Shown in pieces: positions 480 through 18,411 of a DNA stretch of 42,086 bases. Source of the DNA: Schmidtea nova (Eukaryota); the NCBI GenBank assembly GCA_044892505.1, contig CM097883.1:119164001-119206086 (forward strand), read 5' to 3'. Position 1 is the stretch's first letter. Each line of letters opens with the position of its first letter. Position numbers and translations under genes: made by a program. The notes under the pieces were generated by a model. The model had not been told where the DNA came from, made no database searches, and was given only the letters and a program-made list of their open reading frames with translations.

Positions 480-1268
480 TATTTCATAGTATTTTGTGTT
501 CAATAAAATGTATTATTTATTCACTAATGTTTTTGTTCATTAAAACTTTGTTATTGCTTTTCATTATAATATAAATTTGTCAGTTTAGAACGCTGGAAAT
601 TATATTTACAGCATTGTGTTTGAAAAACAAGAGGATAAAGCAAATTCAAACATTTATTTATAACTTTCAAGGAAAACAAACTAGGAAAAAAGAGTTAAGC
701 GAGTGTTGGGCTGGTAGAAGTGAAATTAAAATTTTGTTTTAATGCATCCAAAAATAGATTATCGCACACCCCCCCACCCTAGAAAATAGCACCACTGTCA
801 CTATTTCGCGATACTTCAACTACCGTCTTAACCCGAAAATAACACCATGGTGTTATGTTTGAATATAAGATCACTCTGGTGTTTTTTTCAAGTATAACAC
901 CATGGTGTTTTAAAATACTCTAATGTAATAACTTTTTTTTACATATTTTTAATATTAAAATAATAAAAAGTATTTCTTAAAATTTTATTATTATATATTC
1001 TTTTTTTTTATAAAATATCTTTTATAATTTTCAATTTTAAGTACTTTTAAAATTTTTCTTAATATAAGTTTTTAAGCTGTGTCCATTAAAGAAAATTGGA
1101 ACATTATAATAAAAAATGCAAATACTTAAACTTCATTTGAATATCTAGTATCAAATCCAATTCAAACTGTGGTAATGGTAGAAATTGATCAGTATTTTGG
1201 GATACATATGCTTGGTTAATTAGCATTATATTAATGTTTAAATATTAAATAAAAAACCATGGTGTTAT

Positions 1269-1889
1269 AGTAGAGTAGGGGGAGCGCCCAAGAACAGGAA
1301 CAGGCCCCCCTCCCCCCTAAAATTTTTTTTACCCCCCCAAAAAAAATTTTTTTTGTTTAAATGAAGTGAATTTTTTAAATTTTTTATTTTGTTTAAATTA
1401 AGTGAATTTTTTATTTTGTTTAAATGAAGTCAATTTTTTAATTTTAATTTTTTGTTTAAATGAAGTCAATTTAATTTATTATTTNNNNNNNNNNNNNNNN
1501 NNNNNNNNNNNNNNNNNNNNNNNNNNNNNNNNNNNNNNNNNNNNNNNNNNNNNNNNNNNNNNNNNNNNNNNNNNNNNNNNNNNNNNNNNNNNNNNNNNNN
1601 NNNNNNNNNNNNNNNNNNTAATTTATATTTAATTTTTTATTTTTAATAATTTATTTTTATTAATTTATTTTTAATAATTTATATTTATTTATTTTAATTT
1701 ATATTTAATTTTAATTTATATTTATTTTTAATAATTTATTTTTATTAATTTATTTTTAATAATTTATATTTATTTTTAATAATTTATATTTATTTATTTA
1801 TTTTAATTAATAATTTATATTTATTTTTAATTTATTTTAATTAATATTTATTTTTAATTTATTTTTAATAATTTATTTAAATTTAAATT
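1269..1889 (+). repeat. Left Polinton TIR (inner boundary uncertain because of gaps)
   Basis: Terminal AGTAG motif, C-tracts, about five copies of TTTTGTTTAAATGAAGTGAATTTT, then AT-rich tandem repeats. Mirrored at the right end. Confidence 0.85.
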
Positions 1890-2267
1890 NNNNNNNNNNN
1901 NNNNNNNNNNNNNNNNNNNNNNNNNNNNNNNNNNNNNNNNNNNNNNNNNNNNNNNNNNNNNNNNNNNNNNNNNNNNNNNNNNNNNNNNNNNNNNNNNNNN
2001 NNNNNNNNNNNNNNNNNNNNNNNNNNNNNNNNNNNNNNNNNNNNNNNNNNNNNNNNNNNNNNNNNNNNNNNNNNNNNNNNNNNNNNNNNNNNNNNNNNNN
2101 NNNNNNNNNNNNNNNNNNNNNNNNNNNNNNNNNNNNNNNNNNNNNNNNNNNNNNNNNNNNNNNNNNNNNNNNNNNNNNNNNNTTTAAAATAATAATACTA
2201 ATATTTCATCACAGTATAAATAATACAATAAAGTAGATAAAAACAAAAAGAAATAAAATACAAATAT

Positions 2268-5200
2268 TTATTGAAATAAATCATCTTCATCTTCGTCATC
2301 TTCTTGAATATCTTCATCTTCGGTAATTGAATCCCCCATAACTGTAAAACTTTCCCTACAATGTCCATAAGCAATACTTTTATTTTTCTCAACCCAAAGT
2401 CTCTTATCATCGAGGTTAGTAAGTGCAATTTTTGAAAACTTATTAGTAAAAATTTGATGATTTTTACTCACAAATCGAGACTGCTCTACTGAAACTATAG
2501 TATTATTTCTATAACAATCAAGATAAGACCGATGCTTCAGTTTAGTATCTTTCAAACAGACGCCTTTAGCCTTTAAACATTCCTTATCACCTAAAAGACT
2601 ATAACATTTAGGTCTAAGAAAAACCCATTCCTTATATTTATGACCCTTATTTTCGTCTTTAAACTTTCCTATAACAGAATCAAGTTTTTTCGAATATAAA
2701 GAATGACTAGGGTCGTAATTCGATGTATCCAAAAGACAATCTCTAACCATCGCAGGTAACAGAACATCTAACCTACAATTCTTAATCTCCAAGAAAAAAG
2801 AGTCAGTATCGCCTGCAACTATATTAATCTCACAGTTGAATTCATTGCGATATTTTTGCAATTCTTCATACTGGAGTTGATACATTCTAAGTTTAGATAA
2901 ATCCAGTACACTTTGGCCAATGTAGCTGGGTCTATCTAAACACACAGAGTCCTTATTAAGCAAGACAGAAATTAGATCATCATCAATCCTATAAGTTTTT
3001 CTAAAGGTAGGTTTTGATGTATATGTAATCAGTTTTGATGCTGAATTACAAAGTCGTAAATTGAGTCTTTTCTTAAGATTTTCGACAGTTTTTCCATAAA
3101 GACTATTATTTAAAAGTTTGTAATAGTTTTTATCTAAAACAAACGATGAAGCTGCCCTAAGTTCAGTGTTCGTATCAATATATTTTTTAAAGATGGGTTT
3201 CTGTTTGTACTGAACAGCCCGATGAACTCGTGTTATTTTAACACCCAAAGAAACAAAAAGCTTGAGAAGCCTCCAATGAACAACATAGTTGAACTTTGGA
3301 TAATGTGTTAACATTAACTTCTCAACTTTAGAATTGGGAGCACACATTTTCTCTGCTGCAACCGGAAAGTCATTTAATTTATCGTGAATTTCAACTGGGA
3401 TTACCAAGTCAACTTCAAATGTTACACCGATTGTTAAAAGTTCCAAGTCAGCATCCATCAAATTAATTAATTTATTTAATTTTTTCTCATCATTAATCCA
3501 TTTAAATTTACCACAAGGTAATTTTTGGCTTAAAGCCCAACCGTACAAATTATTAATGTCGATGTAAAGTAGTTCAGTCGTTTCGGAGGATACTACGTGA
3601 TGCTTGTTGACAAATGTCAAACCACCACGGATCCCCCCTTCGAAAAAATTATACATCTCCATATCCTGGAGCAATTCAATAGGTTCTTCCAAGGTAAGAA
3701 GTGCAGAAGCCCACGACATACCTGGAATACCCAAGAAATTCAACGGTTCTAACCTATTATGAGAAATTGACTTGGCTCTAAACTGTTGAAAGAAATCAGC
3801 AAGAAGAAAGACGTCAAGTTTTAAGTATATCATCATATAGTCACAAAGAGTTTGACAATTAGTTTCCCTCCAAATAACTAATGCCTTGTCGTATTCAGCC
3901 TGCTTAACACCCTCCCAGATTGGTGGTAATTCATATGTTTCATTCAAGACTTCTAACGATGTTGCAAAATCATAAGGAAAAATACCCTTACAATCAACAA
4001 TAGTCCCGGTGAATTCAGATCTAGTCAAAGGTAATGAAGTCAATGTTTTAACCGCATCATTTAAACTGGAGTTAATAAACTGACAAGAGTCAATGAATTT
4101 AATTGTTAAATCGCCGACTCTTGCAGACAAAGTAAGGAATTTTTCACTCGTAGTTGGAATACATGAGATTTTCCAAGTTGAAAAGTTTGTCAATCCATAT
4201 TTAAGAATATGGTGCATGTCATACCCTTTTAAATTATGAAACACAACCGGTAGTTCCTTACGAATCTGTCTAGTAAGATTGCATTTTAAGCAAGCAGCAC
4301 CCAAATATTCACCAGTGTAGTGATCATGGTCTCTGACTGGTTGTACTAAAGTTTTCCTACAGAGATAACAATTTGTAGATGATGCAAAAGATATTTTATT
4401 TTCAAAAGTCATAATAAGTGGTTTTTTGAAATTGTTTTTATAAAAAGGAAAAACAATTTCTTCACCTATATTATTAATTTCAGCAAGAAAATTAGTAACG
4501 CAATCAAGACCCAAGAAACTCTTGTAAATCTTTTCTCCAGTAAAGTTATTTACAAGTAAAAGACCGGCAGATATTGGGACATGTCTTTGAAAGTACTTAT
4601 CATCAGCAGGTAAGATTGCCTCAAAATCGGCGTAAACAACAAAAGGTGGAGTAATTGTTTTGCCCCAATTACTAAATGTCAAATAAGGATTTTTAGGCAA
4701 AGTATATAGAGTTGTGCCTAATTGATTTTTAGAACACAACTCTTGATGACGAACAAAAGAATCTTGATATCTAAACCCATTCAAGCAACGATGGTACCAT
4801 ATACTTTGAATACGAGTACCAGATATCGATTTATTGTCAAGATTTAAAAGCCTATCAAGATTGGTTACTGCTATATAATGAAAAGAGTCACCATTTTGTA
4901 AAAGAATCAAGTTAATAGGAATTCCGTCTACTACTTTCGACCTATGAATTATGTCAATACACGGATGTTTGAAAACTTCAGGCTTAGTGTCTAGAATTCC
5001 AGATTCATCATATGAAAGTACGTTAATCGCATATCCCGGGTTTTTAGCTTCAAACTTTGGGATATTGCAAAGACGCATAGGCAAATCAGAAGGACTAAAG
5101 TTAACATCAGAAAGATTGTAATTACTGATCCTATGTTTATTTTTACGGCCAGATATCTCATCATATTTAATAATTACCAAAACAGAATAGATAAAGCACA

Positions 5201-6245
5201 AGTCATCAGAATTCTGAACATTTACAACACAATGTTTTGATTTTAAAGATTCAGGAGTGTCAATACCACCGTAACCTATCAACCTACTTATCTCAGAAAA
5301 TTTGGTTAATATGAAATGAATTTCATTAATTTTATTAATTATCCAGTTACTACCTCTATTATTAATTAATGTAATTTTTTCATTAAGAATATTAATGCCA
5401 TCGTCTATAAAGGTATCTGTGACAGGTTTTGCAGAGTTAGAAATAACTATAGTTTGAAAAGCACCATCTTTTTCAAACTCAACTTCGATGCAAAATTGAA
5501 TTTTAACCGTTCCCATGGTTTCAATTACATTATTTAATTTATTAATTAAATTATCAGGTACAAACATGCTTTTTAAATTCAAGTTAGTGACAATCATTTT
5601 AACTATAGCATGTGATTTATTTAAATCAAATTTAACAACAGGTAAAATGGAGCCACCAACCTGTACTTCAGGAACTAAAGAGTATTTATAGTCAGAAATT
5701 TTATCAAAAGAACCACCAATTTGAATATTATCGATAGGATCAAAAGAGTCTACAACCACAAAATCAGAAAGATTATTTAAATCAAGAATGTTATCAGGAA
5801 TGATATCATTATCAAGAATGGTATCAAGAATGTTATCAACAGGAATGGTATCATTATCATCATCATCATCAGAAATTACAACTATATCTGAAGGAACAAC
5901 CGAATGAACAACTGAAGAAATATCATCAGAAAGATCTGACTTGTTAATTTTGACTGGGATTGGACTATTTACATTACATTTTCTTTTAATCGGTAATTTA
6001 AAAATTGATTTTTTAGATGTTTTAAATTGATCTAAATGATCGCAATGAGTATTGTAAAATTCAATATACGAAGAGGACGAAGTAGATTTGCAAAAAGGAC
6101 AAATGTAGTAAGTTTTACAGTTATGAGGGTATGCATAATATTTTTCCATTATTTCATGGCATTTTACATCATGAATTGTGGAGTTGCAATATTTTTGATA
6201 TAAATTGCCTATAATATTTAAAAATAATATAAAAATAATGATCAA
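2268..6245 (-). CDS. POLB: Protein-primed family B DNA polymerase with an N-terminal extension and an endonuclease VII-like Zn module
   Basis: Exonuclease motifs YADFEA, FHNLKGYD and YLKLDV. Polymerase motifs DINNLYGWA, KLLNNSLYGKT and AGDTDS. CYLC..DHDHYTG..AACLKCN insert. The ORF-track start is TTG; the first ATG is at 6149 and the true start may be spliced. Confidence 0.97.
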   Translation of the reverse strand: MIIIFILFLNIIGNLYQKYCNSTIHDVKCHEIMEKYYAYPHNCKTYYICPFCKSTSSSSYIEFYNTHCDHLDQFKTSKKSIFKLPIKRKCNVNSPIPVKINKSDLSDDISSVVHSVVPSDIVVISDDDDDNDTIPVDNILDTILDNDIIPDNILDLNNLSDFVVVDSFDPIDNIQIGGSFDKISDYKYSLVPEVQVGGSILPVVKFDLNKSHAIVKMIVTNLNLKSMFVPDNLINKLNNVIETMGTVKIQFCIEVEFEKDGAFQTIVISNSAKPVTDTFIDDGINILNEKITLINNRGSNWIINKINEIHFILTKFSEISRLIGYGGIDTPESLKSKHCVVNVQNSDDLCFIYSVLVIIKYDEISGRKNKHRISNYNLSDVNFSPSDLPMRLCNIPKFEAKNPGYAINVLSYDESGILDTKPEVFKHPCIDIIHRSKVVDGIPINLILLQNGDSFHYIAVTNLDRLLNLDNKSISGTRIQSIWYHRCLNGFRYQDSFVRHQELCSKNQLGTTLYTLPKNPYLTFSNWGKTITPPFVVYADFEAILPADDKYFQRHVPISAGLLLVNNFTGEKIYKSFLGLDCVTNFLAEINNIGEEIVFPFYKNNFKKPLIMTFENKISFASSTNCYLCRKTLVQPVRDHDHYTGEYLGAACLKCNLTRQIRKELPVVFHNLKGYDMHHILKYGLTNFSTWKISCIPTTSEKFLTLSARVGDLTIKFIDSCQFINSSLNDAVKTLTSLPLTRSEFTGTIVDCKGIFPYDFATSLEVLNETYELPPIWEGVKQAEYDKALVIWRETNCQTLCDYMMIYLKLDVFLLADFFQQFRAKSISHNRLEPLNFLGIPGMSWASALLTLEEPIELLQDMEMYNFFEGGIRGGLTFVNKHHVVSSETTELLYIDINNLYGWALSQKLPCGKFKWINDEKKLNKLINLMDADLELLTIGVTFEVDLVIPVEIHDKLNDFPVAAEKMCAPNSKVEKLMLTHYPKFNYVVHWRLLKLFVSLGVKITRVHRAVQYKQKPIFKKYIDTNTELRAASSFVLDKNYYKLLNNSLYGKTVENLKKRLNLRLCNSASKLITYTSKPTFRKTYRIDDDLISVLLNKDSVCLDRPSYIGQSVLDLSKLRMYQLQYEELQKYRNEFNCEINIVAGDTDSFFLEIKNCRLDVLLPAMVRDCLLDTSNYDPSHSLYSKKLDSVIGKFKDENKGHKYKEWVFLRPKCYSLLGDKECLKAKGVCLKDTKLKHRSYLDCYRNNTIVSVEQSRFVSKNHQIFTNKFSKIALTNLDDKRLWVEKNKSIAYGHCRESFTVMGDSITEDEDIQEDDEDEDDLFQ

Positions 6246-6310
6246 AATTATGATAAAAATTATGATAAAAATATTATGATAAAAATATTATGATAAAAAT
6301 TATGATAAAA
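6245..6310. repeat. Tandem 13-15 bp AAAAT(AT)TATGATA repeats in the divergent promoter region
   Basis: About five copies visible between pPolB and the 6444 gene. Confidence 0.8.
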
Positions 6311-6443
6311 TATCAATGATGTATATCAAGTGTGTATACACACATTCAAAATATCGTAATATATATTTATTGATTATGATTGGTCAAAATAATTTAAAAA
6401 TTACTATATAAACGACTTATAAAATTAAAATAATCATTAAAAA

Positions 6444-6972
6444 ATGTATCAACTGAAAAGTAAGATTAATTAATTTTAAATGATTATTTTTTAATTTATT
6501 TTTTCTAGAATCGAAAAGAATGACAAAACAAGAAATAATGAAGATTATTCTTGAGGAAAATCCTATTTCTTCATCTAATTTGGCATTGAATTCACCAGTT
6601 CAATTCATGCAATACTCGATGGAGTATTTGAAATATCCAATCAAATATTCATTTAAAGTAATTAATTAAAAATTATAAAAATCTAATTAATATTATTTAC
6701 AGGAACCTGTTACATTGAAACAATGTCAATTCAATATTCAGGTTGGAAAAATCGGGGAAACTGATAGAAAGAATCTATCTGAAATTTTAATGCTAATAAA
6801 TAAAGATATTCAATTCAACGAGGAATTCACATATATGAACTGTAAAAAAGAAACAGATTTAGGCAAATTAGATGATAATTCAATGTATCAAATTCAAATT
6901 ATCTTACAAGGATTTAAACAATCTGAAAACGTGATAAAGCCTATATGGAAAATTACTGATTTTCATGAATAA
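6444..6972 (+). CDS. Three-exon 144-aa protein, join(6444-6459,6509-6657,6703-6972); possibly an OB-fold ssDNA-binding protein
   Basis: GTAAG..TTCTAG (49 nt) and GTAAT..TTACAG (45 nt) introns join into one open frame, MYQLKKSKRMTKQEIMKII...IKPIWKITDFHE. TATATAAA at 6405 lies upstream. The function is a guess from the C-terminal beta-strand pattern. Confidence 0.7.
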
Positions 6973-7029
6973 ACTCTTGTTTAATTTATTTGTTCTTTAT
7001 TTATTTTTAATAATTGATTTTTATAATAA

Positions 7030-7230
7030 ATATATTTTAAAATATATAAATTTATAAAATATATTTATTATAAAAATTAATTAAATTCATAAAATGTAAA
7101 AATATATTTATTATAAAAATTAATTAAAATCATATAATGTAAAAAATATATTTATTATAAAAATTAATTAAATTCATAAAATGTAAAAATATATTTATTA
7201 TAAAAATTAATTAAAATCATATTATATAAA
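7030..7230. repeat. AT-rich tandem repeat (~45-bp unit)
   Basis: Repeated AAATATATTTATTATAAAAATTAATTAAA..CATAAAATGT units. Confidence 0.75.
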
Positions 7231-7234
7231 AAAT

Positions 7235-7456
7235 CTAATTGATAATAATAGTTTCATCAATATATAAATACTTACATTTAAGTTTCGTTGTCATAATATT
7301 GCTTGGTATAATTTTCTTTGTCATTGTCATAATATTGCTTGGTATAATTTTCTTTGTCATTGTCATAATATTGCTTGGTATAATTTTCTTTGTCATAATA
7401 TTGCTTGGTATAATTTCCTTTGTCATAATATTATTTGATATAAATTTCATTGGCAT
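7235..7456 (-). CDS. Small repetitive basic peptide (73 aa, IIPSNIMT(MT)KK repeats); a 5'-UTR intron at 7516-7469 is likely
   Basis: 27/33-bp in-frame tandem repeats. A GTAAGT donor and TTTTCAG acceptor lie just upstream of the ATG. Confidence 0.45.
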   Translation of the reverse strand: MPMKFISNNIMTKEIIPSNIMTKKIIPSNIMTMTKKIIPSNIMTMTKKIIPSNIMTTKLKCKYLYIDETIIIN

Positions 7457-7764
7457 TATTTCAAAAATCTGAAAAGAAAAATTAATAAATATTCATAAAA
7501 AATTAAACTTACTTACTTAAGTTTGCGTGTTGTTAAAAATGTCGTTTATTTAAACGAAATTATTTTTAAATTAATGTAATTTAAAATTAATTAAATATTT
7601 ACAATATGTAATTTAAAATTAATTAAATATTTACAATATGTAATTTAAAATTAATTAAATATTTTACAATATTATTTTCAAATATAATTTAACAAATTCA
7701 AACATAAAAATTCCATAAATAGAAAAAGTCGTTTTATAATAAAAGTCGTTTTATAATAAAAATT

Positions 7765-8144
7765 TTATTTCATATATTTTAGCCAAGCTAAACAATGTTG
7801 CCCACAGGTTTTTGTCATTGGATTTTGATACCGAATTCTGTTATATTCTATTGGTTTTAACATTGACGATAATTTTTTCAATAATATCGGTGGATAATAA
7901 AATCCCATTGGATCAAACACGTATATTTTATCGGGTTTATTATAAATTGCAAGCCAATGTTCACCTTTGAGATTTGATGATTGAGTATTGACAATCAATG
8001 CTTTATTCACATCTATATACGGTATTTTATCTAGAGGAAAAACTCCTAGAAATTCCGATCCAATCAATTTTCTAGCAATCTGATCTACCTGAATTGAACT
8101 AAAATCAATAAAATTTAATTAATTAAAAATAAATCTTACTTCAT
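7765..8144 (-). CDS. PRO: Adenain-like (C5-type) cysteine maturation protease, join(8144-8140,8098-7765), 112 aa
   Basis: Catalytic motifs GEHWLA, FDPMG and QNPMTKTCGQHC. Removing a 41-nt GT-AG intron restores the typical N-terminus MNSIQVDQIARKLIGSEFLGVFPLD. Confidence 0.93.
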
Positions 8145-8221
8145 TTACTTTTTTAATTAATTAAAATTAGTTTATATTAAACCAATAATTTTCAATTAAA
8201 TCAACAATGTTTGAGCAGAGC

Positions 8222-9448
8222 TCAAACCAGTATTGTTCGATTAGCTGTAATTTGTAATTCCTTTTCAAAAACTCCATATACAATTACAGAAACTGATTCA
8301 GTCAATGGTGTACCAAATTTAATATCAAGTCTTAGATTACCTTGTTGTGGTAATTGACTTTGATTTAGGTCAAAATCTGGAGCCAAAACGAAGGTGAAAA
8401 AAGGATATTTACTTTTCCAATCTGCTAAAGTAATACCGCAATTCATACTCTTATTCAGGTAACCAAGGTTACGGACAATAGATTGCATATAACTAGTACT
8501 ACAAATATCATTTTCAAAATCTTGAGAATATTTTTCACGATAATCACTTCCTTTCGATAAAGTTAATGATTTGACATTAAAATGATCGTAAATAGAATAA
8601 GTTTCAGTAAAAGAACCACTATGTCTTTTATTTCCTTGAAACGCTACAAGAATAAAGTTTGGTAATCGTCTATCTCCAAAGATTTGTTCCTTATAAAATG
8701 AAGAAGAACCCATTGGCAATGAAAATTCTACAACTTCCTTATTTCTTATTGGGTAAATTGCATTTCTTGTACTAAGTCCAATTTGATGCCCAGCATAAAC
8801 TGATGGTTCTACTCGAACTCTTCTAACCATTAATTTTGCCTCTAATAATTCAATTATAGGTTCAATTTTTGTACATGTTAAACTATTGGATGGATTTGAT
8901 CTCGTCAATTTAATTTGAACACTAACACCAGGTAATAAATACTTGGGTTGTTCCATGAAATCGAAATGTAATGGAGAACAAATTGAAAATGGTTTTGATT
9001 TTGCAATCCATGCTTTTCTAGTAAGATCATGGTCATTGTATCCCATTGGAGTTAAAGATGTGTGTTTTGTATCACTATTGTAGTTGAGAATAGTTTCAAT
9101 CATGGCTTTGTGTGTAAATGTATCATTTCCTCCTTCAACTTTAGTAGAATTGAAAATTAATTCGGCTTCTTTAAAAAGAGTTTGGAAAAAGAAATTGTTG
9201 GGAGTAACATCAGCATCCAATCCTAAATTTTCACCCGATTTGTTTACAACTTTGACCTGAAGAGATAGTAAAGTATCGTTCAAATCTAAATATTCAGTTT
9301 GAGATCCATTGATGTAAAATTGAATAGATGATGTCCCAGCATCTGTAATTGAATTTGTTGGGTAAATATCTTCAAATGCACCATGTTCAATTACTGCTTG
9401 TGGAGATGGTCTATCAAAAAGACATAATTCAGATTTTGCACTAATCAT
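8222..9448 (-). CDS. PY: Double jelly-roll major capsid protein (Polinton PY)
   Basis: 408 aa with the characteristic start KSELCLFDRPSPQAVIE, YLDLNDTLL, MEQPKYLLPGV and C-terminal GNLRLDIKF. Confidence 0.92.
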   Translation of the reverse strand: MISAKSELCLFDRPSPQAVIEHGAFEDIYPTNSITDAGTSSIQFYINGSQTEYLDLNDTLLSLQVKVVNKSGENLGLDADVTPNNFFFQTLFKEAELIFNSTKVEGGNDTFTHKAMIETILNYNSDTKHTSLTPMGYNDHDLTRKAWIAKSKPFSICSPLHFDFMEQPKYLLPGVSVQIKLTRSNPSNSLTCTKIEPIIELLEAKLMVRRVRVEPSVYAGHQIGLSTRNAIYPIRNKEVVEFSLPMGSSSFYKEQIFGDRRLPNFILVAFQGNKRHSGSFTETYSIYDHFNVKSLTLSKGSDYREKYSQDFENDICSTSYMQSIVRNLGYLNKSMNCGITLADWKSKYPFFTFVLAPDFDLNQSQLPQQGNLRLDIKFGTPLTESVSVIVYGVFEKELQITANRTILV

Positions 9449-9852
9449 TTTTCAAATATTGTTCCATATCCTTTCATTCTTTTGTTTATATGTTTCTTCA
9501 TATTTCTTTTTCGTTTAAGAATTCCGCCATTTTGTTTATTTTCAGTTTTATTTTCGTTAAACACATCAGTCACTTTACTAATTACTTGTGGCAAATGATG
9601 AATCACATCGGGCAATGAGTCTTTAATTTCAGAAATGGCATTGGATTTTAGTGCAGGTAAAATCTTTGAATTATTATTTAACACATCATTGGCAGTTTTC
9701 ATACCAAAATTTCCAATACGTCTAAGAATTGGTAATGCAAATCTACCTATCGTTTTCAACCAACCAGTTCCATATTGTTTACCTACAAAATACGGTAATT
9801 CTCCACCTGATTGGCTGTTGCTATAGAAACTGATAATATCTGGATTATTCAT
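9445..9852 (-). CDS. Conserved small Polinton virion-type protein (135 aa) with QxGG/QxGxG motifs and an amphipathic segment
   Basis: QSGGELPYFVGKQYGTGWLKTIGRFALPIL resembles the small ORF usually found beside the MCP in animal Polintons. Basic C-terminus. Its stop overlaps the MCP start (ATGA). Confidence 0.75.
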   Translation of the reverse strand: MNNPDIISFYSNSQSGGELPYFVGKQYGTGWLKTIGRFALPILRRIGNFGMKTANDVLNNNSKILPALKSNAISEIKDSLPDVIHHLPQVISKVTDVFNENKTENKQNGGILKRKRNMKKHINKRMKGYGTIFEK

Positions 9853-9856
9853 TTAT

Positions 9857-10867
9857 TTAACGGAAATGTAATGTCAAGTAAGTTTTGTCTTCTTTTGCAA
9901 ATTTAACTATTTTTCCACTGTCATCACGAATATTGATTTCAATATTGTTTATATATGTGGAACTGACCGGTAAATACATTGGATTTTTCTCAACAATTTG
10001 AACCAAATCACCCTTTTTATGTTTTTCAACCCAAACACATTTCAATAGGGGAACTGACATGTCACCAACAAGAATTGGTTGAATAATATTCGTATAGATG
10101 AACATTTGCTGATGAAGTTTTAAAACTTGTGGATAATATACGCCATCAATAATTTTGTCAAAGAATTCTTGTTCAACTAATCCTAACGAATTTGCTAAAT
10201 TCCTACTAAATTTTACACTAGTTATATCATCTTCAAGAATTAATTTAATTAATTTTCCTTCTTTAATATCAATCACTTTAAATGGATGTGGATAAAAAGT
10301 TTCAATTTGATCAGATAATTCAGTAAGATTATTTATTATTAAATCGTCTTTGAAATTATCTGTGTATTCAACAGGAAAAGTATAAGTTATAGTAAACCGT
10401 ATAGTATCATCAAGTTTTTTATTTTCATTTGCTGGAATTTTAATTTTGTTTAATTCATCATTAAATGTCACAGTTTTTTCTTGAAACCCTAATTTTTTAG
10501 CTTCATCAACACTATCAAATATTATTTGAAATGGAAAATATTTACAATTTACATTTAAAATATTGCCATCAATATACATTAAATAATAATTAGAATCGTG
10601 ACTTATATCATATTCTTTCTTTTGTTGGTTAAAATTGAAATATTCATAACTAGAATGTAATTCATTTCTAATAAATTTTATACTTGAACTATTATAAAAT
10701 GGAAATTCATTGTACACAAAAGTAAAATCCATAAGAGCAACTTCCCAACTACCATCCAAATAAATTGGGTTTTGATATTCAACATTGAATTTTCCAGCTT
10801 TATTATTGGGATGTGTCAATGGACAAGAATTGCTTGGTAAATTAACATAAAAATCTTTTTTAATCAT
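9857..10867 (-). CDS. PX: Minor capsid protein/penton (PX), copy 2, with large central insert
   Basis: FYVNLPSNS..NKAGKF..WEVAL at the N-terminus; IYTNII.P..VGD..VPLL..YLPV..IEINIRDDSG..LTLHFR at the C-terminus. Confidence 0.9.
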   Translation of the reverse strand: MIKKDFYVNLPSNSCPLTHPNNKAGKFNVEYQNPIYLDGSWEVALMDFTFVYNEFPFYNSSSIKFIRNELHSSYEYFNFNQQKKEYDISHDSNYYLMYIDGNILNVNCKYFPFQIIFDSVDEAKKLGFQEKTVTFNDELNKIKIPANENKKLDDTIRFTITYTFPVEYTDNFKDDLIINNLTELSDQIETFYPHPFKVIDIKEGKLIKLILEDDITSVKFSRNLANSLGLVEQEFFDKIIDGVYYPQVLKLHQQMFIYTNIIQPILVGDMSVPLLKCVWVEKHKKGDLVQIVEKNPMYLPVSSTYINNIEINIRDDSGKIVKFAKEDKTYLTLHFR

Positions 10868-11897
10868 TTATTTTACGAAAATGTAGAGTCAAATGAGTCT
10901 TTGTATCTTTTGAAAATTTAATTAATTTTCCACTGTCATCACGAATATTGATTTCAATGTTGTTTATAGTTGATGTTGAAATCGGCAAATACATTGGATT
11001 CTTTATTTCAATTTGTACAACTTCGCCTTGGTCATATTTCTTGATCCAAATTGATTTTAGGAGGGGAACTCGTACATCTCCAACAGTTACTGGTTCAATA
11101 ATGTTGCTGTAAATGAACATTTGCTGATGAAGTTGTAAAATTTTGGGGATTTTTACACCAATTATTTCTGTATCAGTATATGTTTGTTTCTGTAGACCCA
11201 GAGATTTGGTTAAATTTGAATCAAAAGTAATTTTTGAAATATTATCCTGAAGAATAATTTTAACCAATTCATTATTGACAAGTTTCAATTCTTTAAATGG
11301 AGATGGATTAATTTTCATTAAATATCCTTGTAATTCCGGTAATGACGTTATGAATAATTCATCTTGAAAATAATAATCATTAACAGTTTTAATGTCATAA
11401 TTTATTAAAATTCCAAATTGTTCAAGACTATTATCATTCGTGAATTTTGGTAATTTTAAACGACAATGGTCATTTTCACTTATAATTGTGGTATTTGTCA
11501 ATATAAAACTTTTTGCATGTTCAAGATCTGGAAATGTAATTTTAAATGGAACATGTGGACAAACAATCACTAAATAATTATATTTTTCAATAAATACATC
11601 AGTGTCTGAACTAGGTTGAGAAACTATAACTTGAATTGTTTTATTTTGATTATTAATTCTCAAATAACTAATTTCTTGAATTTCTCTTTTAGTTTCAATT
11701 TGAATAAAAGAATTACTATAATACGGGAACAAATTATACACAAAAGTAAAATCAATCAAAGCAACTTCCCAATCGTCATTACTATTTAAATAAATCGGAT
11801 TTTGAAATTCTACATTAAAATTACTAGCTTCATTATTAGGATAAATAAGAGGACATGCATTGCTAGGCAAAATCATATAAAACTGGTTTTCTTTCAT
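10860..11897 (-). CDS. PX: Minor capsid protein/penton (PX), copy 1, with large central insert
   Basis: Same terminal motifs (FYMILPSNA, WEVAL, VGDVRVPLL, IEINIRDDSG, LTLHFR) with a different central domain. Confidence 0.9.
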   Translation of the reverse strand: MKENQFYMILPSNACPLIYPNNEASNFNVEFQNPIYLNSNDDWEVALIDFTFVYNLFPYYSNSFIQIETKREIQEISYLRINNQNKTIQVIVSQPSSDTDVFIEKYNYLVIVCPHVPFKITFPDLEHAKSFILTNTTIISENDHCRLKLPKFTNDNSLEQFGILINYDIKTVNDYYFQDELFITSLPELQGYLMKINPSPFKELKLVNNELVKIILQDNISKITFDSNLTKSLGLQKQTYTDTEIIGVKIPKILQLHQQMFIYSNIIEPVTVGDVRVPLLKSIWIKKYDQGEVVQIEIKNPMYLPISTSTINNIEINIRDDSGKLIKFSKDTKTHLTLHFRKIND

Positions 11898-11902
11898 AAT
11901 AT

Positions 11903-12988
11903 TTATTTAATCAATTGTTTTTCAGATATCCAACTTGGAGTTTCATAGCCATGCCATTTAACGTAATATTGTTTATATTTCCCATCAGTTTTGGTTTTTA
12001 AAATCTTTTGAATTCTAAAAACTGTGGGAGCTGGAATAACTTGAAGTTCTTGTTCGTAGAATTTACCCTCGATTACATTGTTTTCATGATCGGAAATAGT
12101 ATACATGACAGGATTTTGATTAGTATCAACATTTGAGATTTGATATACTTCATCACTCCAATTACTATCAAAATTTTTGATGAATGGAGAAGCACTGATT
12201 TTACTCATTCTCACATAATCACCTACTTTATATTTCGGTTTTTTATTAATTGATTTTAATCTATCTTTTATCCATCCATCAAAATTATTATTTGAATATA
12301 CATCGATAGGTTTCATTTTATTTAATCCCGAATGCGGTGAACGATTGTAACTGGAAATAATTTTCGGTAAAACATTTATCCATGTTTTGTTACCTTGATA
12401 CACAAAAAACTTTTTCAAACGATCTCTTAAAGTACGATTTAATCTTTCAACATGAGCAGCTTTGAATTGATAAAATACAGAATAATGATTGATTCCTTTA
12501 ATCACTTCTTTTACTTTGCTGTTATAAAACTCTTTTCCTAAATTAAAATTAATTAATTTTTAAAAATTTAATTTATTACCCAAATCAGTTTGTAAATTAC
12601 GTGGCTTCCCATCTTTAAATAAAGATTCAATAGCCTCAGCCATTTCATTAGCAGATTTAGTTTTTGTTGGAATAGCTCGTGCATAACGGCTAAAAACATC
12701 AATACAAGTCAAGATATATTTGTAACCCTTGTTAATTTTAGAATAAGGAATCATTTCCATCAAATCCATTTGCCATAAATCGTTACCCCCAAAAGTTTTA
12801 TATTTCCGTGTAGGAAATCTTTTCAACATTGGTTTATTTAAACTATATGCCAATTGATCAGATAACCATTTCTGAGTTTCATTCTTTGAACTTTTTATTC
12901 TTTTTGCCAATTTTTTGACTGAACCAAAACCATCGGGATCTTTTGGGTTTGTCCATATCGTTTTTATATTCTTCATGATTTTCTTCAT
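11903..12988 (-). CDS. INT: Retroviral-type (rve) DDE integrase with C-terminal chromodomain, join(12988-12580,12537-11903), 347 aa
   Basis: Catalytic WQMDL, TDLG and VERLNRTL. A 42-nt GTAAT..TTTAG intron restores TDLGKEFYN. SH3-like KYKVGDYVR and chromodomain YYVKWHGY..SWI. Confidence 0.95.
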
Positions 12989-13050
12989 TAATACAACAAT
13001 TTGTTAAAATATTTAAATCTATATTATGTTTATTCGGTTCAGAAATTTTA

Positions 13051-13380
13051 TTACCCATTTCTTAAAGATGAGATTGCGCTTATTGCTGATAATACTATTG
13101 GAATTAATGTACCGAGAAACCCACCCTTTTGTTTATATATTATTTTTCGCATAAGATTTCTATTTTTGGTATTCACTAATGATAAAAGTGAATTTTTATG
13201 TTTTTGTAGTTCAATTTTCTTTGATCTACTAATATTTACATTACCATGAACAATATTAAAAACGATTTCAAGTAAATCATCAATAACAAAGGGTGGGAAA
13301 GCTTGTAAAATTATCATTCGCTTATTTGTTGGAGCTTTAACCAAAGCATTAAAATACGGTAAACTACGTTCAAATTTCAT
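13051..13380 (-). CDS. Conserved small Polinton protein (PW-like) ending QKGGFL plus a hydrophobic tail
   Basis: NIVHGNV and KQKGGFLGTLIPIVLS match a recurrent small ORF of animal Polintons; the exact family name is uncertain. Confidence 0.75.
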   Translation of the reverse strand: MKFERSLPYFNALVKAPTNKRMIILQAFPPFVIDDLLEIVFNIVHGNVNISRSKKIELQKHKNSLLSLVNTKNRNLMRKIIYKQKGGFLGTLIPIVLSAISAISSLRNG

Positions 13381-13410
13381 GATTAAAATTTTTGTGTATA
13401 TTTATTTCGT

Positions 13411-13596
13411 TTATAATTTTATCCACTTCTTTACTTGTTTCTTTCTTTTACCAATCTTTTTGACAACTTTTTTAACTAATTTTGATTTTCGATCAACTTT
13501 TTTAAGAAGTTTTTGATCAACTTTTTTAAGTAGTTTTTGATCAGCTTTTTGAATAGCTTCTTTATTTAACTTGACAATTACTTTTTTAAATGACAT
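13411..13596 (-). CDS. Very basic Lys-rich 61-aa protein; candidate genome-condensing core protein
   Basis: ATG-initiated, QKLLKKVD repeats, packed between the ATPase and PW-like genes. Confidence 0.6.
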   Translation of the reverse strand: MSFKKVIVKLNKEAIQKADQKLLKKVDQKLLKKVDRKSKLVKKVVKKIGKRKKQVKKWIKL

Positions 13597-13617
13597 TATT
13601 ATTTCTTTTATTTATTT

Positions 13618-14241
13618 TCAATTTTGTTTATAAACCGTGACTCCATTTTCGTTAAATATATCCGTTCGGATACGTAAATCATCAGGACATTGTTGAGTAA
13701 AATCAAAGAATAAATATCCATGAGGAACTTTAGTAGCATCTTGAAATGAATTAATTAAAAATTTCCTATCATTAGGGTAAGCTTGTCTTGCTAGAAAATC
13801 AATAATTGTAGCATCTCTTGGGTTTTTGAATATAACCAAGTATTGAACATTTAAATTACGAGTTCTGTGACTACGACCTTGATGAAATAAATTTTGAGTA
13901 ATGAAAATTACAGTAACTCCTAAATGTCTACTAATTTTTGTGAATAAATTATTAAAATCTTTTTCTTTATTTGCTTCTTGGTACAAATCATCGATAATTA
14001 TAACATCGCCTTGTCGTAATCTAGATGACCAGTTTTTATCAAACCCTTTTATAATTGTCATTTTTAATTTGCAGAATTGATCTTGAGTCAGTCCATGTTC
14101 TTCATCAGCTCCCCGATGCCAGTAAATTTTATTGAATTTAGATTTAAACATTTTTGATTGCAACAATTTACATACAAATAATGTTTTTCCACTACCACTT
14201 GGGCCCACTATTTGATAAACTGCATCATTTCTTAATTCCAT
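13618..14241 (-). CDS. ATP: A32/FtsK-HerA-like genome packaging ATPase
   Basis: Walker A GPSGSGKT, Walker B IIIDD, then ISRHLGVTVIFITQNLF and PHGYLFFD. Confidence 0.95.
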   Translation of the reverse strand: MELRNDAVYQIVGPSGSGKTLFVCKLLQSKMFKSKFNKIYWHRGADEEHGLTQDQFCKLKMTIIKGFDKNWSSRLRQGDVIIIDDLYQEANKEKDFNNLFTKISRHLGVTVIFITQNLFHQGRSHRTRNLNVQYLVIFKNPRDATIIDFLARQAYPNDRKFLINSFQDATKVPHGYLFFDFTQQCPDDLRIRTDIFNENGVTVYKQN

Positions 14242-14301
14242 TTTTAATTAATTAATTATTAATTAATTTAATATTGTTTATATTTATTCAATTTTATAAA
14301 A

Positions 14302-14784
14302 ATGATAAGTAATATTAATTATATGGGCAAGTGTTTAGTTCCAAACATGATATTTCCTGTTGGGAAACCCCAGCAAGTTATAGATAGGAGTGGGAAGTAC
14401 CCTATTTTATTTTTCAGATCGGGAAAATGTCGTGTAATGGGTTGTAAGCAACCGTTAAAACCAGATGATTTGAAATATAAAATTTCCGATTTAAAAATTC
14501 AATCGATCACTATAACATTGGATATGGGTAAATCCATAAATTTATACGAATTGCAAAATAAAACAGAGTGCTGGTACGAACCCGAAATATTTCCAGCTTT
14601 AAGATTAATAAATTATAACCCGATTTGTATTAATATTTTTTCAAGTGGAAAAGTTGTAATATTAGGAATTAAAACATTGGATTATTTTAATCAAGTAAAT
14701 GAAATTAAAAATTATATTAATTCATTAATTAATAATGAATTAATTGATGAAAAATATCTCGATTTATTATTTAATTTTGTTTAA
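14302..14784 (+). CDS. TATA-binding-protein (TBP)-like protein inside the Polinton
   Basis: C-terminal repeat KIQSITITLD..INLYEL..YEPEIFPAL..INIFSSGKVVILGIKT matches the TBP pattern IQN..YEPELFPGL..LIFxSGKVVLTGAK. A shortened N-terminal repeat reads ISNI..LFFRSGKCRVMGCK. Confidence 0.85.
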   Translation: MISNINYMGKCLVPNMIFPVGKPQQVIDRSGKYPILFFRSGKCRVMGCKQPLKPDDLKYKISDLKIQSITITLDMGKSINLYELQNKTECWYEPEIFPALRLINYNPICINIFSSGKVVILGIKTLDYFNQVNEIKNYINSLINNELIDEKYLDLLFNFV

Positions 14785-14819
14785 ATACATTGTTATTTTA
14801 CAAATCCATATTTTTGAAA

Positions 14820-15205
14820 ATGTCTAAAAGTAAGTATTATTTTTAATTATCTATATTATTAATATTTTTAATTTAGCTTATTTATTTGAAGTGGTCCTGA
14901 AGAAAATTCAAGAATTATATCCAAAAATAAAAGATTCTTTGGATTATTGTGCGCCAGAGTTATTGGTTCATAAGATATATAAGCTTACTGGGATCAATAT
15001 CGAACAATTGCTCGAGATTCACTACGATATGGTGCTAGGAGCTGGAGTCAAGTGCGTTGAAAATTGCATAGTTTGCAATGATTCACTAAGAGTATCCTGT
15101 GTAAATGGATGTGCATGCTGTCATGATTTTAAAAGAGATCATTCGGTGCATATCTTAATGTCAGAAATGCGTAAAGCATATTATAACGACATTTATAATT
15201 TATAA
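14820..15205 (+). CDS. Two-exon Cys/His-rich 112-aa protein, join(14820-14829,14877-15205); probable Zn binder
   Basis: A 47-nt GTAAGT..TTTAG intron gives MSKTYLFEVVLKKIQE...; Cys cluster KCVENCIVC..SCVNGCACCH..H..H. Confidence 0.7.
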
Positions 15206-15808
15206 TAAAGTTTTGTGATTTAGTTGTTCTTTATTTTTATTTCAAAGTTTGTTCTTATTAATTTACTATTTTATTGTATTATTTACACTGTGATGAAATA
15301 TTAGTGTTATTATTTTAGAAATTTTTCTAAGNNNNNNNNNNNNNNNNNNNNNNNNNNNNNNNNNNNNNNNNNNNNNNNNNNNNNNNNNNNNNNNNNNNNN
15401 NNNNNNNNNNNNNNNNNNNNNNNNNNNNNNNNNNNNNNNNNNNNNNNNNNNNNNNNNNNNNNNNNNNNNNNNNNNNNNNNNNNNNNNNNNNNNNNNNNNN
15501 NNNNNNNNNNNNNNNNNNNNNNNNNNNNNNNNNNNNNNNNNNNNNNNNNNNNNNNNNNNNNNNNNNNNNNNNNNNNNNNNNNNNNNNNNNNNNNNNNNNN
15601 NNNNNNNNNNNNNNNNNNNNNNNNNNNNNNNNNNNNNNNNNNNNNNNNNNNNNNNNNNNNNNNNNNNNNNNNNNNNNNNNNNNNNNNNNNNNNNNNNNNN
15701 NNNNNNNNNNNNNNNNNNNNNNNNNNNNNNNNNNNNNNNNNNNNNNNNNNNNNNNNNNNNNNNNNNNNNNNNNNNNNNNNNNNNNNNNNNNNNNNNNNNN
15801 NNNNNNNN

Positions 15809-16380
15809 CCAAAAATAAATTTANNNNNNNNNNNNNNNNNNNNNNNNNNNNNNNNNNNNNNNNNNNNNNNNNNNNNNNNNNNNNNNNNNNNNNNNNNNNN
15901 NNNNNNNNNNNNNNNNNNNNNNNNNNNNNNNNNNNNNNNNNNNNNNNNNNNNNNNNNNNNNNNNNNNNNNNNNNNNNNNNNNNNNAAAATAAATAAATAT
16001 AAATTAAAATTAAATATAAATTNNNNNNNNNNNNNNNNNNNNNNNNNNNNNNNNNNNNNNNNNNNNNNNNNNNNNNNNNNNNNNNNNNNNNNNNNNNNNN
16101 NNNNNNNNNNNNNNNNNNNNNNNNNNNNNNNNNNNNNNNNNNNNNNNNNNNNNNNNNAAATAATAAATTAAATTGACTTCATTTAAACAAAAAATTAAAA
16201 TTAAAAAATTCACTTCATTTAAACAAAATTAAAAATTAAAAATTCACTTAATTTAAACAAAATAAAAAATTTAAAAAATTCACTTCATTTAAACAAAATT
16301 TTTTTTTTTTGGGGGGGGTAAAAAAAAATTTTTAGGGGGGGGGGTCTGTTGCTGTTCTTGGGCGCTCCCCCTACTCTACT
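15809..16380 (-). repeat. Right Polinton TIR (inner boundary uncertain because of gaps)
   Basis: Reverse complement of 1269 onward, with a few substitutions and homopolymer-length differences. Confidence 0.85.
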
Positions 16381-18411
16381 TGTTATATTTGAATTTTTCT
16401 TCAATGTTTTAAAAATTCAAAATTTTTTAAAAACTCAAATACAACACCATGGTGTTATTTTCGGATTAAGACGGTAGTTATTGCGTGTTTTAAAAAATCA
16501 AGTTTACCTATAGATTAAAAAGTTTTATGGATTTTCAAGTAAACATATTTTTAAAAAAGTGCTGCACTTTATTTAAGTCTTATTATTGATTTTTAAGTGC
16601 AAAATAGTTATTTTTGGGCACAAATCATCGTTTTTCATAGGGATACACAGATCTTGATAATAAGTGCAAATACTTATAAAATACAGTGCTCCAAAACATA
16701 AAAATCGATATTATTACAAAAGTGTTAAATCAACTTGCGCAGATCGGATTTACACACGAAAAATACACAAGAATTGAATGGGGAAGATCACTGCTTATAT
16801 ATAGAATACGAAATGCATGATCAAAGAATAAAATCGGTATTACAATAAAGAGAGTATTTCAATAATGATTTATTAAAAATTTTAGAAGAAATCTCCATTG
16901 AAATGTCGGTAAAATAACAGAGATTAAAATGAAAATAGAATTAAAATTAAATTTGATTCTTTTAATCAATCTATTAAAGTGGATGCACACATGATTTAAT
17001 CGAGTTAAAAATAAATATTAAAAAAACAAATAAAGTAAATTGTACAATTAAATTTACAGAAAATAAATAAATAATCATTTTTCAAAATACATAAATTAAA
17101 TATTAAAATAATTATATAAATTAAATTAATAATATTCTTATTTTACAAACATAATGTGTAGGCTTCATTTAGAATTAGTATAAATAGGCGCTGAGAAATC
17201 ATAATTCTAGCTCACTTACTTACTTGCCGCGGACAAACAATTCTACTTGTATTTTTGTTTAATTCTACAAAACAGCACTAGTAATTGTATTTTGTTATTC
17301 AAGTGTAAGGCGTAATTAGACGATTTTACTTAATAAACATTTGAAATATGATTTTAATTTTTATTCATGGTTTGTTCAATTTGATTTTCCTTTAACTTAG
17401 TCAAATAATGGTTGTGAAACCGGTTTCCCAAAGCAGCTTTAGTCCTACCATTCACCAGGCGAATTCAAGGTTTAAGCCTTGGTATATAATAATTAAAAAG
17501 GTAAATTTGAAGTCATTCAAGAATAGGCTTAAGCAGCCTGGTGGATATAAGCATGATGATTATTTTGATGTTTTAGGATAAATAAGTGGGATCTGAAATA
17601 GGATAGATATAAAATTAGGAATTTATCACTCCAAATGACCGTAAACTGGATATGTGCGTAAGTCTTTCTATCGGCAGCAGGAACCCGAAAGAGAATACAA
17701 CGAGTAGTTTGGCAACAAAGCTCACCTGCTCACTAGATTCTCACCAAGTACAGTACCATCATAGTTTGCCAAGGAGTAACTATAGGTATACGAGTAAATC
17801 AGTTAACATTTATGATGGGGTGAGTTGTAGTTATCCCTAGACTAATAATAATTTTGTAGCAACCAATAACGCGAATATAAAGAATACCTGCAAACACACA
17901 TACCATCATCATAAATAACCTTATCTTGAAACTGCAATTTTGACACATTATTACGTAGTATGCTTGTTTAATTAAGTATTTATTCCTTAAAAAATATATA
18001 TTTTGAAAGAATAAAACTTATCAAGAAAATACAATTAATTTATTTGTTTAAATAAACTAATAATACACAAAGGTATGCCGTAACTAACTCGTTTAAATTC
18101 AGTACATGCGACAGAACTTTAACCAAAATTATTTTAAACAAAACAGATAAGTTAAGTTGTACAAACTTTGGAATTATAACTATAATAGATTAATCTAAAA
18201 AATAAACAATTTTATTTATACAATAAAGGTCAGTGGTTACAGAAAAAGCTGGGTATTATTAACCGATATCATACACTAAGACTACCAAATTTCTGAAATC
18301 TGACGCTGATTTACTATATTTATAAAAATAGATCACAATAAAAATTATAACAAAATGTTATCACAAAATCAACAAATTAAATTTGACATTTTATCAATTA
18401 ACGTGATTCTA

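Follow-up and report, generated by a model that had tools for sequence, protein, structure and literature searches.

A reduced TATA-binding protein encoded by Polintons and a conserved YATAAAC(A/G) box before their virion genes: a candidate late-transcription system

Proteins with the TATA-binding protein (TBP) fold are encoded by several DNA viruses. ORF24 of KSHV, one of the TBP mimics of the beta/gamma-herpesviruses, is large, belongs to a complex of six factors and makes direct contact with Pol II; its model is reported to be incompatible with TFIIB (available text of PMC12529657). The TBPs of nucleocytoviruses, as far as the available part of PMC7221094 describes them, have lost N-lobe regulator signatures, for which an escape from Mot1/BTAF1 was proposed; these viruses mostly encode their own TFIIB, and the first of the two TFIIB-contacting glutamates is conserved in about 40% of them. 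TBP is not among the eight core genes given for vertebrate Mavericks in the accessible text of PMC8097293 and PMC8502044. Whether a Polinton switches from a silent transposon to a particle-forming virus, and by what means, is an open question, and the papers searched are silent on Polinton promoters in their accessible parts.

Here we describe a TBP-like gene of a Polinton/Maverick element in a stretch of 42,086 nucleotides from Schmidtea nova (the whole stretch analysed, called the window below). In common with the herpesvirus mimics, the Polinton system would combine a virus-encoded TBP fold, a polar DNA face, a non-canonical box before structural genes and host Pol II, while the box itself differs, being TATTWAA in herpesvirus late promoters (PMC12529657, available text) and YATAAAC in the Polinton. 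Unlike ORF24, the Polinton protein appears to be a stand-alone protein of 150-160 aa that keeps the TFIIB glutamates. It may be likened to the herpesvirus late system by analogy but is not a member of it, being small, alone and equipped with the TFIIB face; the herpesvirus matches in a viral fold search were weak (E about 0.01), and no sequence-level kinship was seen. Nucleocytovirus TBPs, which resemble it in the loss of the N-lobe regulator signatures, matched the fold at E 5e-8 with an identity of at most 21%; the Polinton family differs from the nucleocytovirus TBP and TFIIB pairs in keeping the first glutamate (E93) in 147 of 158 rows and in having no TFIIB gene recognised in the element. 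Compared with cellular TBP/TRF (PF00352; human 1cdw/7egb, yeast 1ytb, archaeal 1mp9), it has the two-lobed saddle, three of the four intercalating Phe residues and the C-lobe E-P-E stirrup, whereas the N-lobe helices H1 and H2 are absent, the F99 position is probably occupied by Pro, the DNA-facing set is polar and family-specific, and the proteins form a separate clade.

The original prediction had named this gene the best candidate for an undescribed system. That stands for its structure, distribution and promoter, of which no account was found in the available text of papers on Polintons, Mavericks and adintoviruses (PMC8502044, PMC8097293). It does not stand entirely for its name, since Starrett et al. 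2021 (PMC8502044, accessible part) have "TBP" as a gene label in the legend of a figure, a label that may or may not denote this family; the searchable part of the supplement of that paper contained no TBP match. Term searches returned no TBP or promoter motif in the accessible text on nematode Polintons, coral polintoviruses, vertebrate Mavericks, 2026 PLV preprints, cryptophyte PLVs and entomopoxvirus PLVs, with subscription journals, Repbase and preprint supplements outside the scope. Within the literature searched, this one label is all that was found in print on a Polinton TBP.

The element (family A, 1269..16380) had AGTAG...CTACT termini and was flanked by the 6-bp TSD TGTTAT at 1263..1268 and 16381..16386 (both +). 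The left terminal inverted repeat probably extends over 1269..2236 (+; arms at 1269-1636 and 2185-2236, with N stretches inside) and the right one covers 15266..16380 (-; arms at 15266-15317 and 16006-16380, also with N stretches inside). The long TIRs with AG...CT ends, the 6-bp TSD and the joint presence of pPolB, a retroviral-type integrase, an A32 ATPase and an adenain protease identified the element as a Polinton/Maverick. As predicted, the TBP-like gene (14302..14784, +, 160 aa) lay inside the TIRs with its own ATG and an uninterrupted, intronless frame. Head to head with it was the A32-like packaging ATPase (13618..14241, -; Pox_A32 E 1.1e-6), followed on the same strand by a small basic ORF (13411..13596), a pX/mu-like core protein gene (13051..13380; Adeno_PX E 1.1e-5) and the rve integrase with a chromodomain (11903..12988), which was split into two frames by a break near 12560-12580 that looks by eye like a putative short GT-AG intron. 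Two putative minor capsid (penton) genes (10860..11897 and 9857..10867, both -, 45% identical to each other), a conserved 135-aa gene for a putative pVII-like core protein, a name that is tentative (9445..9852, -), and a putative major capsid protein of 408 aa (8222..9448, -) came next. The 408-aa and the 336/345-aa ORFs are conserved and stand at the places expected for the DJR major and single jelly-roll minor capsid proteins; with no Pfam match for any of them, the assignment goes by position and size, together with conservation for the major capsid protein. The penton-like gene (9857-11897) was a tandem duplicate in family A and in locus L040 and single in family B (the second Polinton family of the source genome, described below), and each copy kept an embedded box of the kind described below.

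The remaining genes of the element were the adenain-like protease (7765..8144, -; Peptidase_C5 E 1.9e-5), whose 5' end probably lies behind a short intron, a small conserved gene without an assigned function (6520..6972, +, with a predicted 45-nt intron at 6658-6702), homologues of which were found near the TBP gene in 7 of 64 metagenomic loci, and the 1293-aa protein-primed DNA polymerase B with an endonuclease VII/HNH-like insert (2268..6149, -). The pPolB family PF03175 matched relatives of 60-96% identity. Many of the matches in the source genome were inverted pairs about 10 kb apart, which suggests palindromic polymerase-only derivatives; in one case (L162/L163, C3:118,282,043-118,296,000) two polymerase genes lay in a 6.1-kb inverted duplication of 99.9% identity. 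Downstream of the TBP-like gene was a Cys-rich gene (14820..15205, +, with a predicted 47-nt intron at 14830-14876), and a homologue 30-47% identical occupied the same place in family B. A part for this gene in the TBP system had been suggested, and the searches lent it no support: the protein had no Pfam match and no tblastn match in the 64 metagenomic loci. Short (~45-nt) GT-AG introns were thus predicted in four Polinton genes, namely the 6520 gene, the Cys-rich gene, the protease (near 8090-8139) and the integrase (near 12560-12580), whereas vertebrate Maverick genes are reported as intronless in the accessible text of PMC8097293 and PMC8502044. Besides the TBP-like gene, the ORFs of this 15-kb element were either assigned or small. 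No TFIIB match was found among the element ORFs scanned at the Pfam level, which a remote homologue could escape, and none of the 6 PF00382 matches in the source genome lay inside the window.

The assignment of the protein to the TBP fold, for which a structure search had been proposed, was borne out. The Pfam TBP model (PF00352) matched in two stretches at E 6.1e-17 and 61.7 bits, against a curated cut-off of 22.9, and 35 TBP-containing PDB sequences were matched. The AlphaFold2 model built from a 27-row alignment had a pLDDT of 91.3 and the two-lobed saddle fold in this prediction, with an N-lobe of five strands and no helix; helices occurred only from residue 81. Of the 44 Foldseek matches against the PDB at E <= 0.001, all those listed were TBP entries, and the best structural alignment (VIA) placed residues 1-144 on human TBP 164-337 with a Z of 12.8 and an rmsd of 2.6 A over 144 residues. 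The YEPE stirrup of the C-lobe, both intercalating Phe residues F97 and F113, and the SNI and LFFRSGK motifs were all present as described in the original prediction. Its account of the N-lobe was correct for the helices, both H1 and H2 being gone, and overstated for the stirrup, which was shortened and not absent. Basic helix H2 was replaced by a linker of 19 residues in place of 32, and the family median was 20.5 residues against 32 in cellular TBP. The loss was graded within the family: basal members keep H1 and a shortened H2, and the clade of the window has neither. Relatives of the ORF began at the same M-x-x-N-I-N-Y position. This shared Met, and the variation of the upstream open frame among copies (161-196 aa), led us to reject an in-frame upstream extension that would restore the N-lobe.

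The residues at the two functional faces of the protein were strongly conserved among 158 dereplicated rows. The two C-lobe glutamates at positions C.L3.2 and C.L3.4, defined as TFIIB contacts in the available part of PMC7221094, were kept (E93 147/158, E95 155/158), and the N-lobe basic helix, described there as the surface for TFIIA, TAF1, Brf1 and Mot1, was lost, which together fit the earlier description of a stripped-down viral TBP. Intercalating Phe was nearly invariant at three positions (F38 152/153, F97 157/158, F113 155/156), and the first N-lobe Phe of the canonical four (yeast F99) was absent. Its place is most likely taken by the almost invariant Pro23 (143/147), because members that keep H1 have 29 residues from Asn4 to the Pro, as from N69 to F99 in cellular TBP; the register of this assignment differs between two alignments, the larger of which uses a Pro three residues earlier. 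Yeast residue numbers, apart from those of I194, V203 and L205, were mapped through the plant TBP row of the alignment. The substitutions of DNA-facing residues were V71 to N (N6, 118/139), V122 to R (R44, 152/154) and T124 to M (M46, 156/157), together with N159 to S/T at residue 68 (155/157) and V161 to T/S at residue 70 (156/157). Three more substitutions, I194 to R (R101, 131/158), V203 to C (C109, 130/158) and L205 to N (N111, 154/156), fell on exactly the positions changed in the altered-specificity yeast mutant TBPm3, whose numbering is taken from the available text of PMC1636458. This pattern argues for a DNA-facing surface that is rebuilt and conserved rather than decayed.

The gene was not confined to one copy. 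In the source genome, all 150 scored matches to the TBP-like gene were full length, 99-100% identical and free of stops; because these were the best 150 of 18,919 candidates, the set favours intact copies and its size is a lower bound. The ATPase adjoined in 29 and the Cys-rich gene in all 30 of the copies examined. The second Polinton family of the same genome (family B) carried the TBP gene at 48-58% identity, head to head with the ATPase in 7/7 and 10/10 loci examined. Outside the source genome, 26 relatives were found by word search and 120 clusters at E <= 1e-10 by a full scan, some of the latter being canonical TBPs. Among the 64 metagenomic loci, five (L090-L094) were canonical two-lobed TBPs and were left out of the family, and 59 were family members: 31 had a Polinton hallmark neighbour, 23 of the other 28 shared another neighbour gene with those, and the last 5 were short contigs without such a link. 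Scans of IMG/VR yielded no TBP-family or close Polinton loci, the GTDB scan gave no match, and in the ESM Atlas only TBP-family clusters were matched.

The phylogeny and the substitution rates, both proposed as checks, agreed with this distribution. In a midpoint-rooted tree of 102 rows and 145 columns (76 family rows after thinning and 26 canonical-like ones, with host TBP exons left out as partial), the family formed one side of a branch with an SH-aLRT of 98; the tree does not place the donor lineage. At least four TBP-family loci of the host (L095-L099) were recognised, comprising a canonical TBP with introns, a duplicated paralogue and two divergent TRF-like genes that have none; these genes encode canonical two-lobed proteins, and the two TRF-like proteins grouped with plant TBP in the same tree. 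Pairwise dN/dS was 0.12-0.60 in all 44 pairs with dS of 0.1-1.2 (from 1,225 pairs, which are not independent), and 0.24 between families A and B. The sequences thus indicate a conserved Polinton gene family under purifying selection and not a decaying retrocopy, as the screen for homologues in a second Polinton family and 59 metagenomic loci also suggests. Of the outcomes that the original prediction had listed as refuting it, none that can be judged from sequence was observed.

Alignment of the upstream regions of Polinton genes revealed an eight-base element, YATAAAC(A/G). In counts dereplicated for four gene sets, ATAAAC was present at -60..-20 from the ATG of the ATPase in 18/19, of pX in 9/10 and of the capsid gene in 6/8, at positions from -31 to -56, and of the TBP gene in 2/41; 300 mononucleotide shuffles gave means of 0.4-1.4 and maxima of 4-5 over the four sets (0.4-0.7, with a maximum of 4, for ATPase, pX and capsid), and the opposite strand gave 0 for these three late genes. 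Within 130 nt, in counts not dereplicated, it was found for the integrase in 11/14, penton in 11/12, pVII-like in 7/7 and protease in 6/10, the distance being about -100 for the penton and pVII-like genes. The base before ATAAAC was T or C in 63/67 and A in one, and the base after it was A or G in 65/67. The related words ATAAAT and ATAAAA occurred before late genes in 4/19 and 1/19, near the shuffle level. Elements whose ATPases are only 37-40% identical had the box in common; the one ATPase without it (L087) is 26% identical and its start call is doubtful.

Many of the boxes were embedded in the coding sequence of the gene upstream. The I-N dipeptide at the box was encoded by ATA AAC in 10/10 penton and 7/7 pVII-like cases, against 3/60 of the other I-N dipeptides, and capsid I-N-V codons contained the box in 3/5. 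The YKQ-type words of the ATPase read ATAAAC in 15/16, for which the control is weak, 4/10 other such words doing likewise. This codon choice points to a box fixed even at synonymous sites inside upstream genes. In the window, TATAAAC preceded the ATPase, the basic ORF, pX, both pentons, the pVII-like gene, the capsid gene and the protease. The TATAAACA form stood in the 60-bp spacer of the head-to-head pair, 40 nt ahead of the ATG of the ATPase (14275..14282, -). Further copies were embedded in genes: in the C-terminal YKQ codons of the ATPase, 35 nt from the small basic ORF that follows (13625..13632, -); in the C-terminus of the integrase, at a distance of 79 nt from the first penton-like gene (11970..11977, -); in I-N-N codons of penton, at 100 nt both from the second penton-like gene (10961..10968, -) and, at another site, from the 135-aa gene (9946..9953, -); and in I-N-K codons, at 41 nt from the major capsid gene (9483..9490, -). 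A TATAAACG box lay 34 nt before the pX-like gene (13408..13415, -), TATAAACT about 30 nt before the likely protease start at 8144 (8169..8176, -), and AATAAACA at -45 from the integrase (13027..13034, -), with a TATAAACA further upstream of it (13130..13137, -). The small gene starting at 6520 had TATAAACG about 112 nt upstream (6407..6414, +), and the polymerase and TBP genes of the window had no positioned ATAAAC box upstream. The ATPase box was kept in 29/29 family-A copies with an ATPase and in 15/15 family-B-type copies with a start found, 13 of these at -35/-36. The motif put forward earlier as the cognate one, TATA-CGAC, did not hold up: TATA-n-CGAC occurred four times in the element and twice outside it and not at matching places in family B, and of the four sites that at 6407 alone coincides with a TATAAAC box, so that the earlier motif caught the conserved element in part.

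Related Polintons had boxes before further genes. A conserved gene of about 155 aa followed an ATAAAC box in three distant elements (L040 9591-10055, L069 5870-6355, L079 6495-6959); it has an acidic motif near its N-terminus and looks nuclease-like by eye, the L040 copy had no Pfam match, and the gene was absent from the ORF list of the window. Accessory genes of such elements (L040 222-719; L079 7052-7912 and 8996-9397) encoded a ubiquitin-conjugating (E2) domain, a KilA-N protein and a phospholipase A2-like protein. The gene for the phospholipase A2-like protein had its ATAAAC box at -35.

The TBP gene itself often had a different upstream signal. A canonical TATAWAW stood at the usual distance before it in 22/41 (shuffle mean 6.5, maximum 13) and was missing in 19/41. 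The TBP gene of the window also lacked it at that distance and had an off-position GATAAACT 87 nt upstream. TBP genes without the canonical TATA (upstream regions in L031-L058 and L054-L075) often shared TTGTTTTA(A/C) about 50 nt upstream, and many of the same regions had ATTGG/CCAAT and TCAT(A/T) elements, a candidate alternative early promoter.

A third, unrelated Polinton-like lineage, with a DJR capsid (PF21738) and an rve integrase, was found by a Pfam A32 search of the source genome and served as a control with the same host and base composition. Leaving aside one copy's insertion site, a family-A element with its own TBP, the family HMM detected no TBP in the four loci of this lineage (best E 0.75), and ATAAAC was present in 2/29 upstream windows of 130 nt and in none at -60..-20; the four loci are related and their ends not mapped, so the independent contrasts of gene and box are few. 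The loci (L154/L155 3268-13616, L156/L157, L158/L159 and L160/L161, at C1:252.70-252.72 Mb and others) contained the capsid, integrase, A32 ATPase, protease, polymerase and an HTH/zinc-finger gene. AT-rich TATA/TAAA signals abutted the ATG of these genes and may belong to another transcription system. The insertion of one copy into a family-A Polinton might point to a way of life as a satellite or with dependence on a helper. Five distant virophage-like ATPases from IMG/VR, which are weak controls, had no TBP and the box in 0/5.

We propose that the viral TBP, made early, reads YATAAAC(A/G) and recruits host TFIIB and Pol II to the virion genes, and give this reading a probability of roughly 0.6. 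Host TBP would transcribe the viral TBP gene early, since 22/41 relatives carry the canonical TATAWAW that it could read. Judging from its distance to the ATG, the box would be the core promoter of each virion gene, embedded in upstream coding sequence. The viral TBP is the likely reader of the box because the non-canonical C lies in the 3' half, which is the half contacted by the N-lobe in cellular TBP (available text of PMC1636458), because the N-lobe is the rebuilt lobe, and because the three TBPm3 specificity positions are also replaced. The rebuilt N-lobe would then read the C-containing half, and the protein would be expected to prefer YATAAAC(A/G), for example TATAAACA, over TATAAAAA. 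Through its intact stirrup the C-lobe would dock host TFIIB and hence Pol II, host TFIIB being the probable adapter in view of the retained glutamates and of the lack of a recognised TFIIB gene among those of the element. A complex prediction of the protein with the second-cyclin-repeat exon of host TFIIB (L119) scored 0.00, with an uncertain partner fold and the alignment left unused, and so speaks neither for nor against this docking. Loss of H2 would free the viral TBP from Mot1/BTAF1, TAF1 and TFIIA, and a single gene would thereby switch a 15-kb integrating virus from early to late expression. Against this reading count the varying distance of the box from the start codons, the missing canonical TATA at the usual distance before the TBP gene of the window, and the probable loss of one of the four intercalating Phe residues: TRF2, which lost such a Phe, does not bind TATA according to the available text of PMC10005294. 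The broader claim, that a mini-TBP without the host regulatory surface and with a DNA face re-coded for YATAAAC(A/G) forms, with host TFIIB/Pol II, the smallest known late-transcription system of a DNA virus, serving all virion genes in a widespread clade of animal-type Polintons, stands in our judgement at about even odds.

Part of the evidence could be read otherwise. Cellular TBP keeps 27% activity on TATAAACG in plant protoplasts (PMC10005294, available text), and a C(-25) variant box was crystallised with wild-type TBP (1qn3, among the Foldseek PDB matches), so that host-type TBP tolerates TATAAAC and a viral-only reading is weakened; the box might then be a deliberately weak TATA for host TBP, and the viral TBP, whose TFIIB face is conserved while several DNA contacts changed, a decoy titrating TFIIB or a repressor on early or host promoters. 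We regard this as unlikely. A decoy needs no invariant, newly polar DNA-facing surface, host TBP alone leaves the C requirement unexplained given that ATAAAT and ATAAAA are not enriched before late genes, and the TBP gene of the same elements uses canonical boxes. Of the two roles left open by the original prediction, recruiter or decoy, the first is favoured because a matching promoter element exists. Slightly less likely again is a viral TBP that reads the box with the help of viral partners, such as the Cys-rich or 6520 gene, or through an adapter other than TFIIB, be it Brf1 with Pol III or a direct contact to Pol II, in the manner of the multi-protein herpesvirus late complex. The Cys-rich gene follows the TBP gene in both source-genome families, homologues of the 6520 gene lie near TBP in the 7 metagenomic loci mentioned, and the same glutamate also contacts Brf1/Brf2 (available part of PMC7221094); against this, the Cys-rich protein went unmatched in the metagenomic loci, both TFIIB glutamates are kept, unlike in most large-virus TBPs, H2, which Brf1 needs too, is gone, and the predicted GT-AG introns point to Pol II.

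Two further explanations would detach the box from the TBP gene or make the gene a recent host copy. The forkhead consensus is RYAAAYA, and TATAAA and CATAAA are variants of the poly(A) signal; ATAAACA fits the former, and many of the boxes are found towards the 3' end of the gene before them. We nevertheless hold a host forkhead site or a poly(A) signal variant to be improbable, since strand and distance are strict. GTAAA[CT]A occurred in 0/23, 0/11 and 0/8 late windows, and the base before ATAAAC is nearly always T or C, with a single A. A poly(A) signal is at odds with the box before the ATPase in 6/6 head-to-head layouts (the window, family B, L044, L073, L084, L085), where no co-oriented gene lies upstream, and with boxes as far as 100 nt within coding sequence, since cleavage at such sites would leave a shortened mRNA. 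The remaining idea, that the element recently captured a retrocopy of host TBP which is now decaying, could appeal to the intronless frame and the seemingly truncated N-lobe, and has in our view a negligible chance: the family is set apart in the tree from the TBPs of the host and of other cells, an orthologue about 50% identical sits in the second family, dN/dS is well below 1, and over a hundred relatives have the same deletions.

If the proposed reading by the viral TBP is true, the protein would be an example from nature of a TBP with altered specificity and an intact TFIIB face; it could teach how TATA is recognised and would be a candidate for an orthogonal transcription tool. A late factor of its own, with a box to match, would imply that the element runs an autonomous nuclear gene cascade without a helper virus. 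With the gene and the 8-bp element named, Polinton gene regulation becomes directly testable, and the box may serve as a simple marker for annotating Polinton virion genes.

Outside the element, the window contained dispersed repeats at 19232-19366, 25092-28443, 30483-30621 and 33383-34504, probably remnants of related elements; the fragment at 34214-34504 was similar to the N-terminus of the Polinton polymerase. An ORF at 23069-24034 encodes a hydrophobic 321-aa protein that resembles a seven-transmembrane receptor by eye, and four consecutive ORFs at 36502-38381 resemble, again by eye, a fragmented hAT-type transposase.
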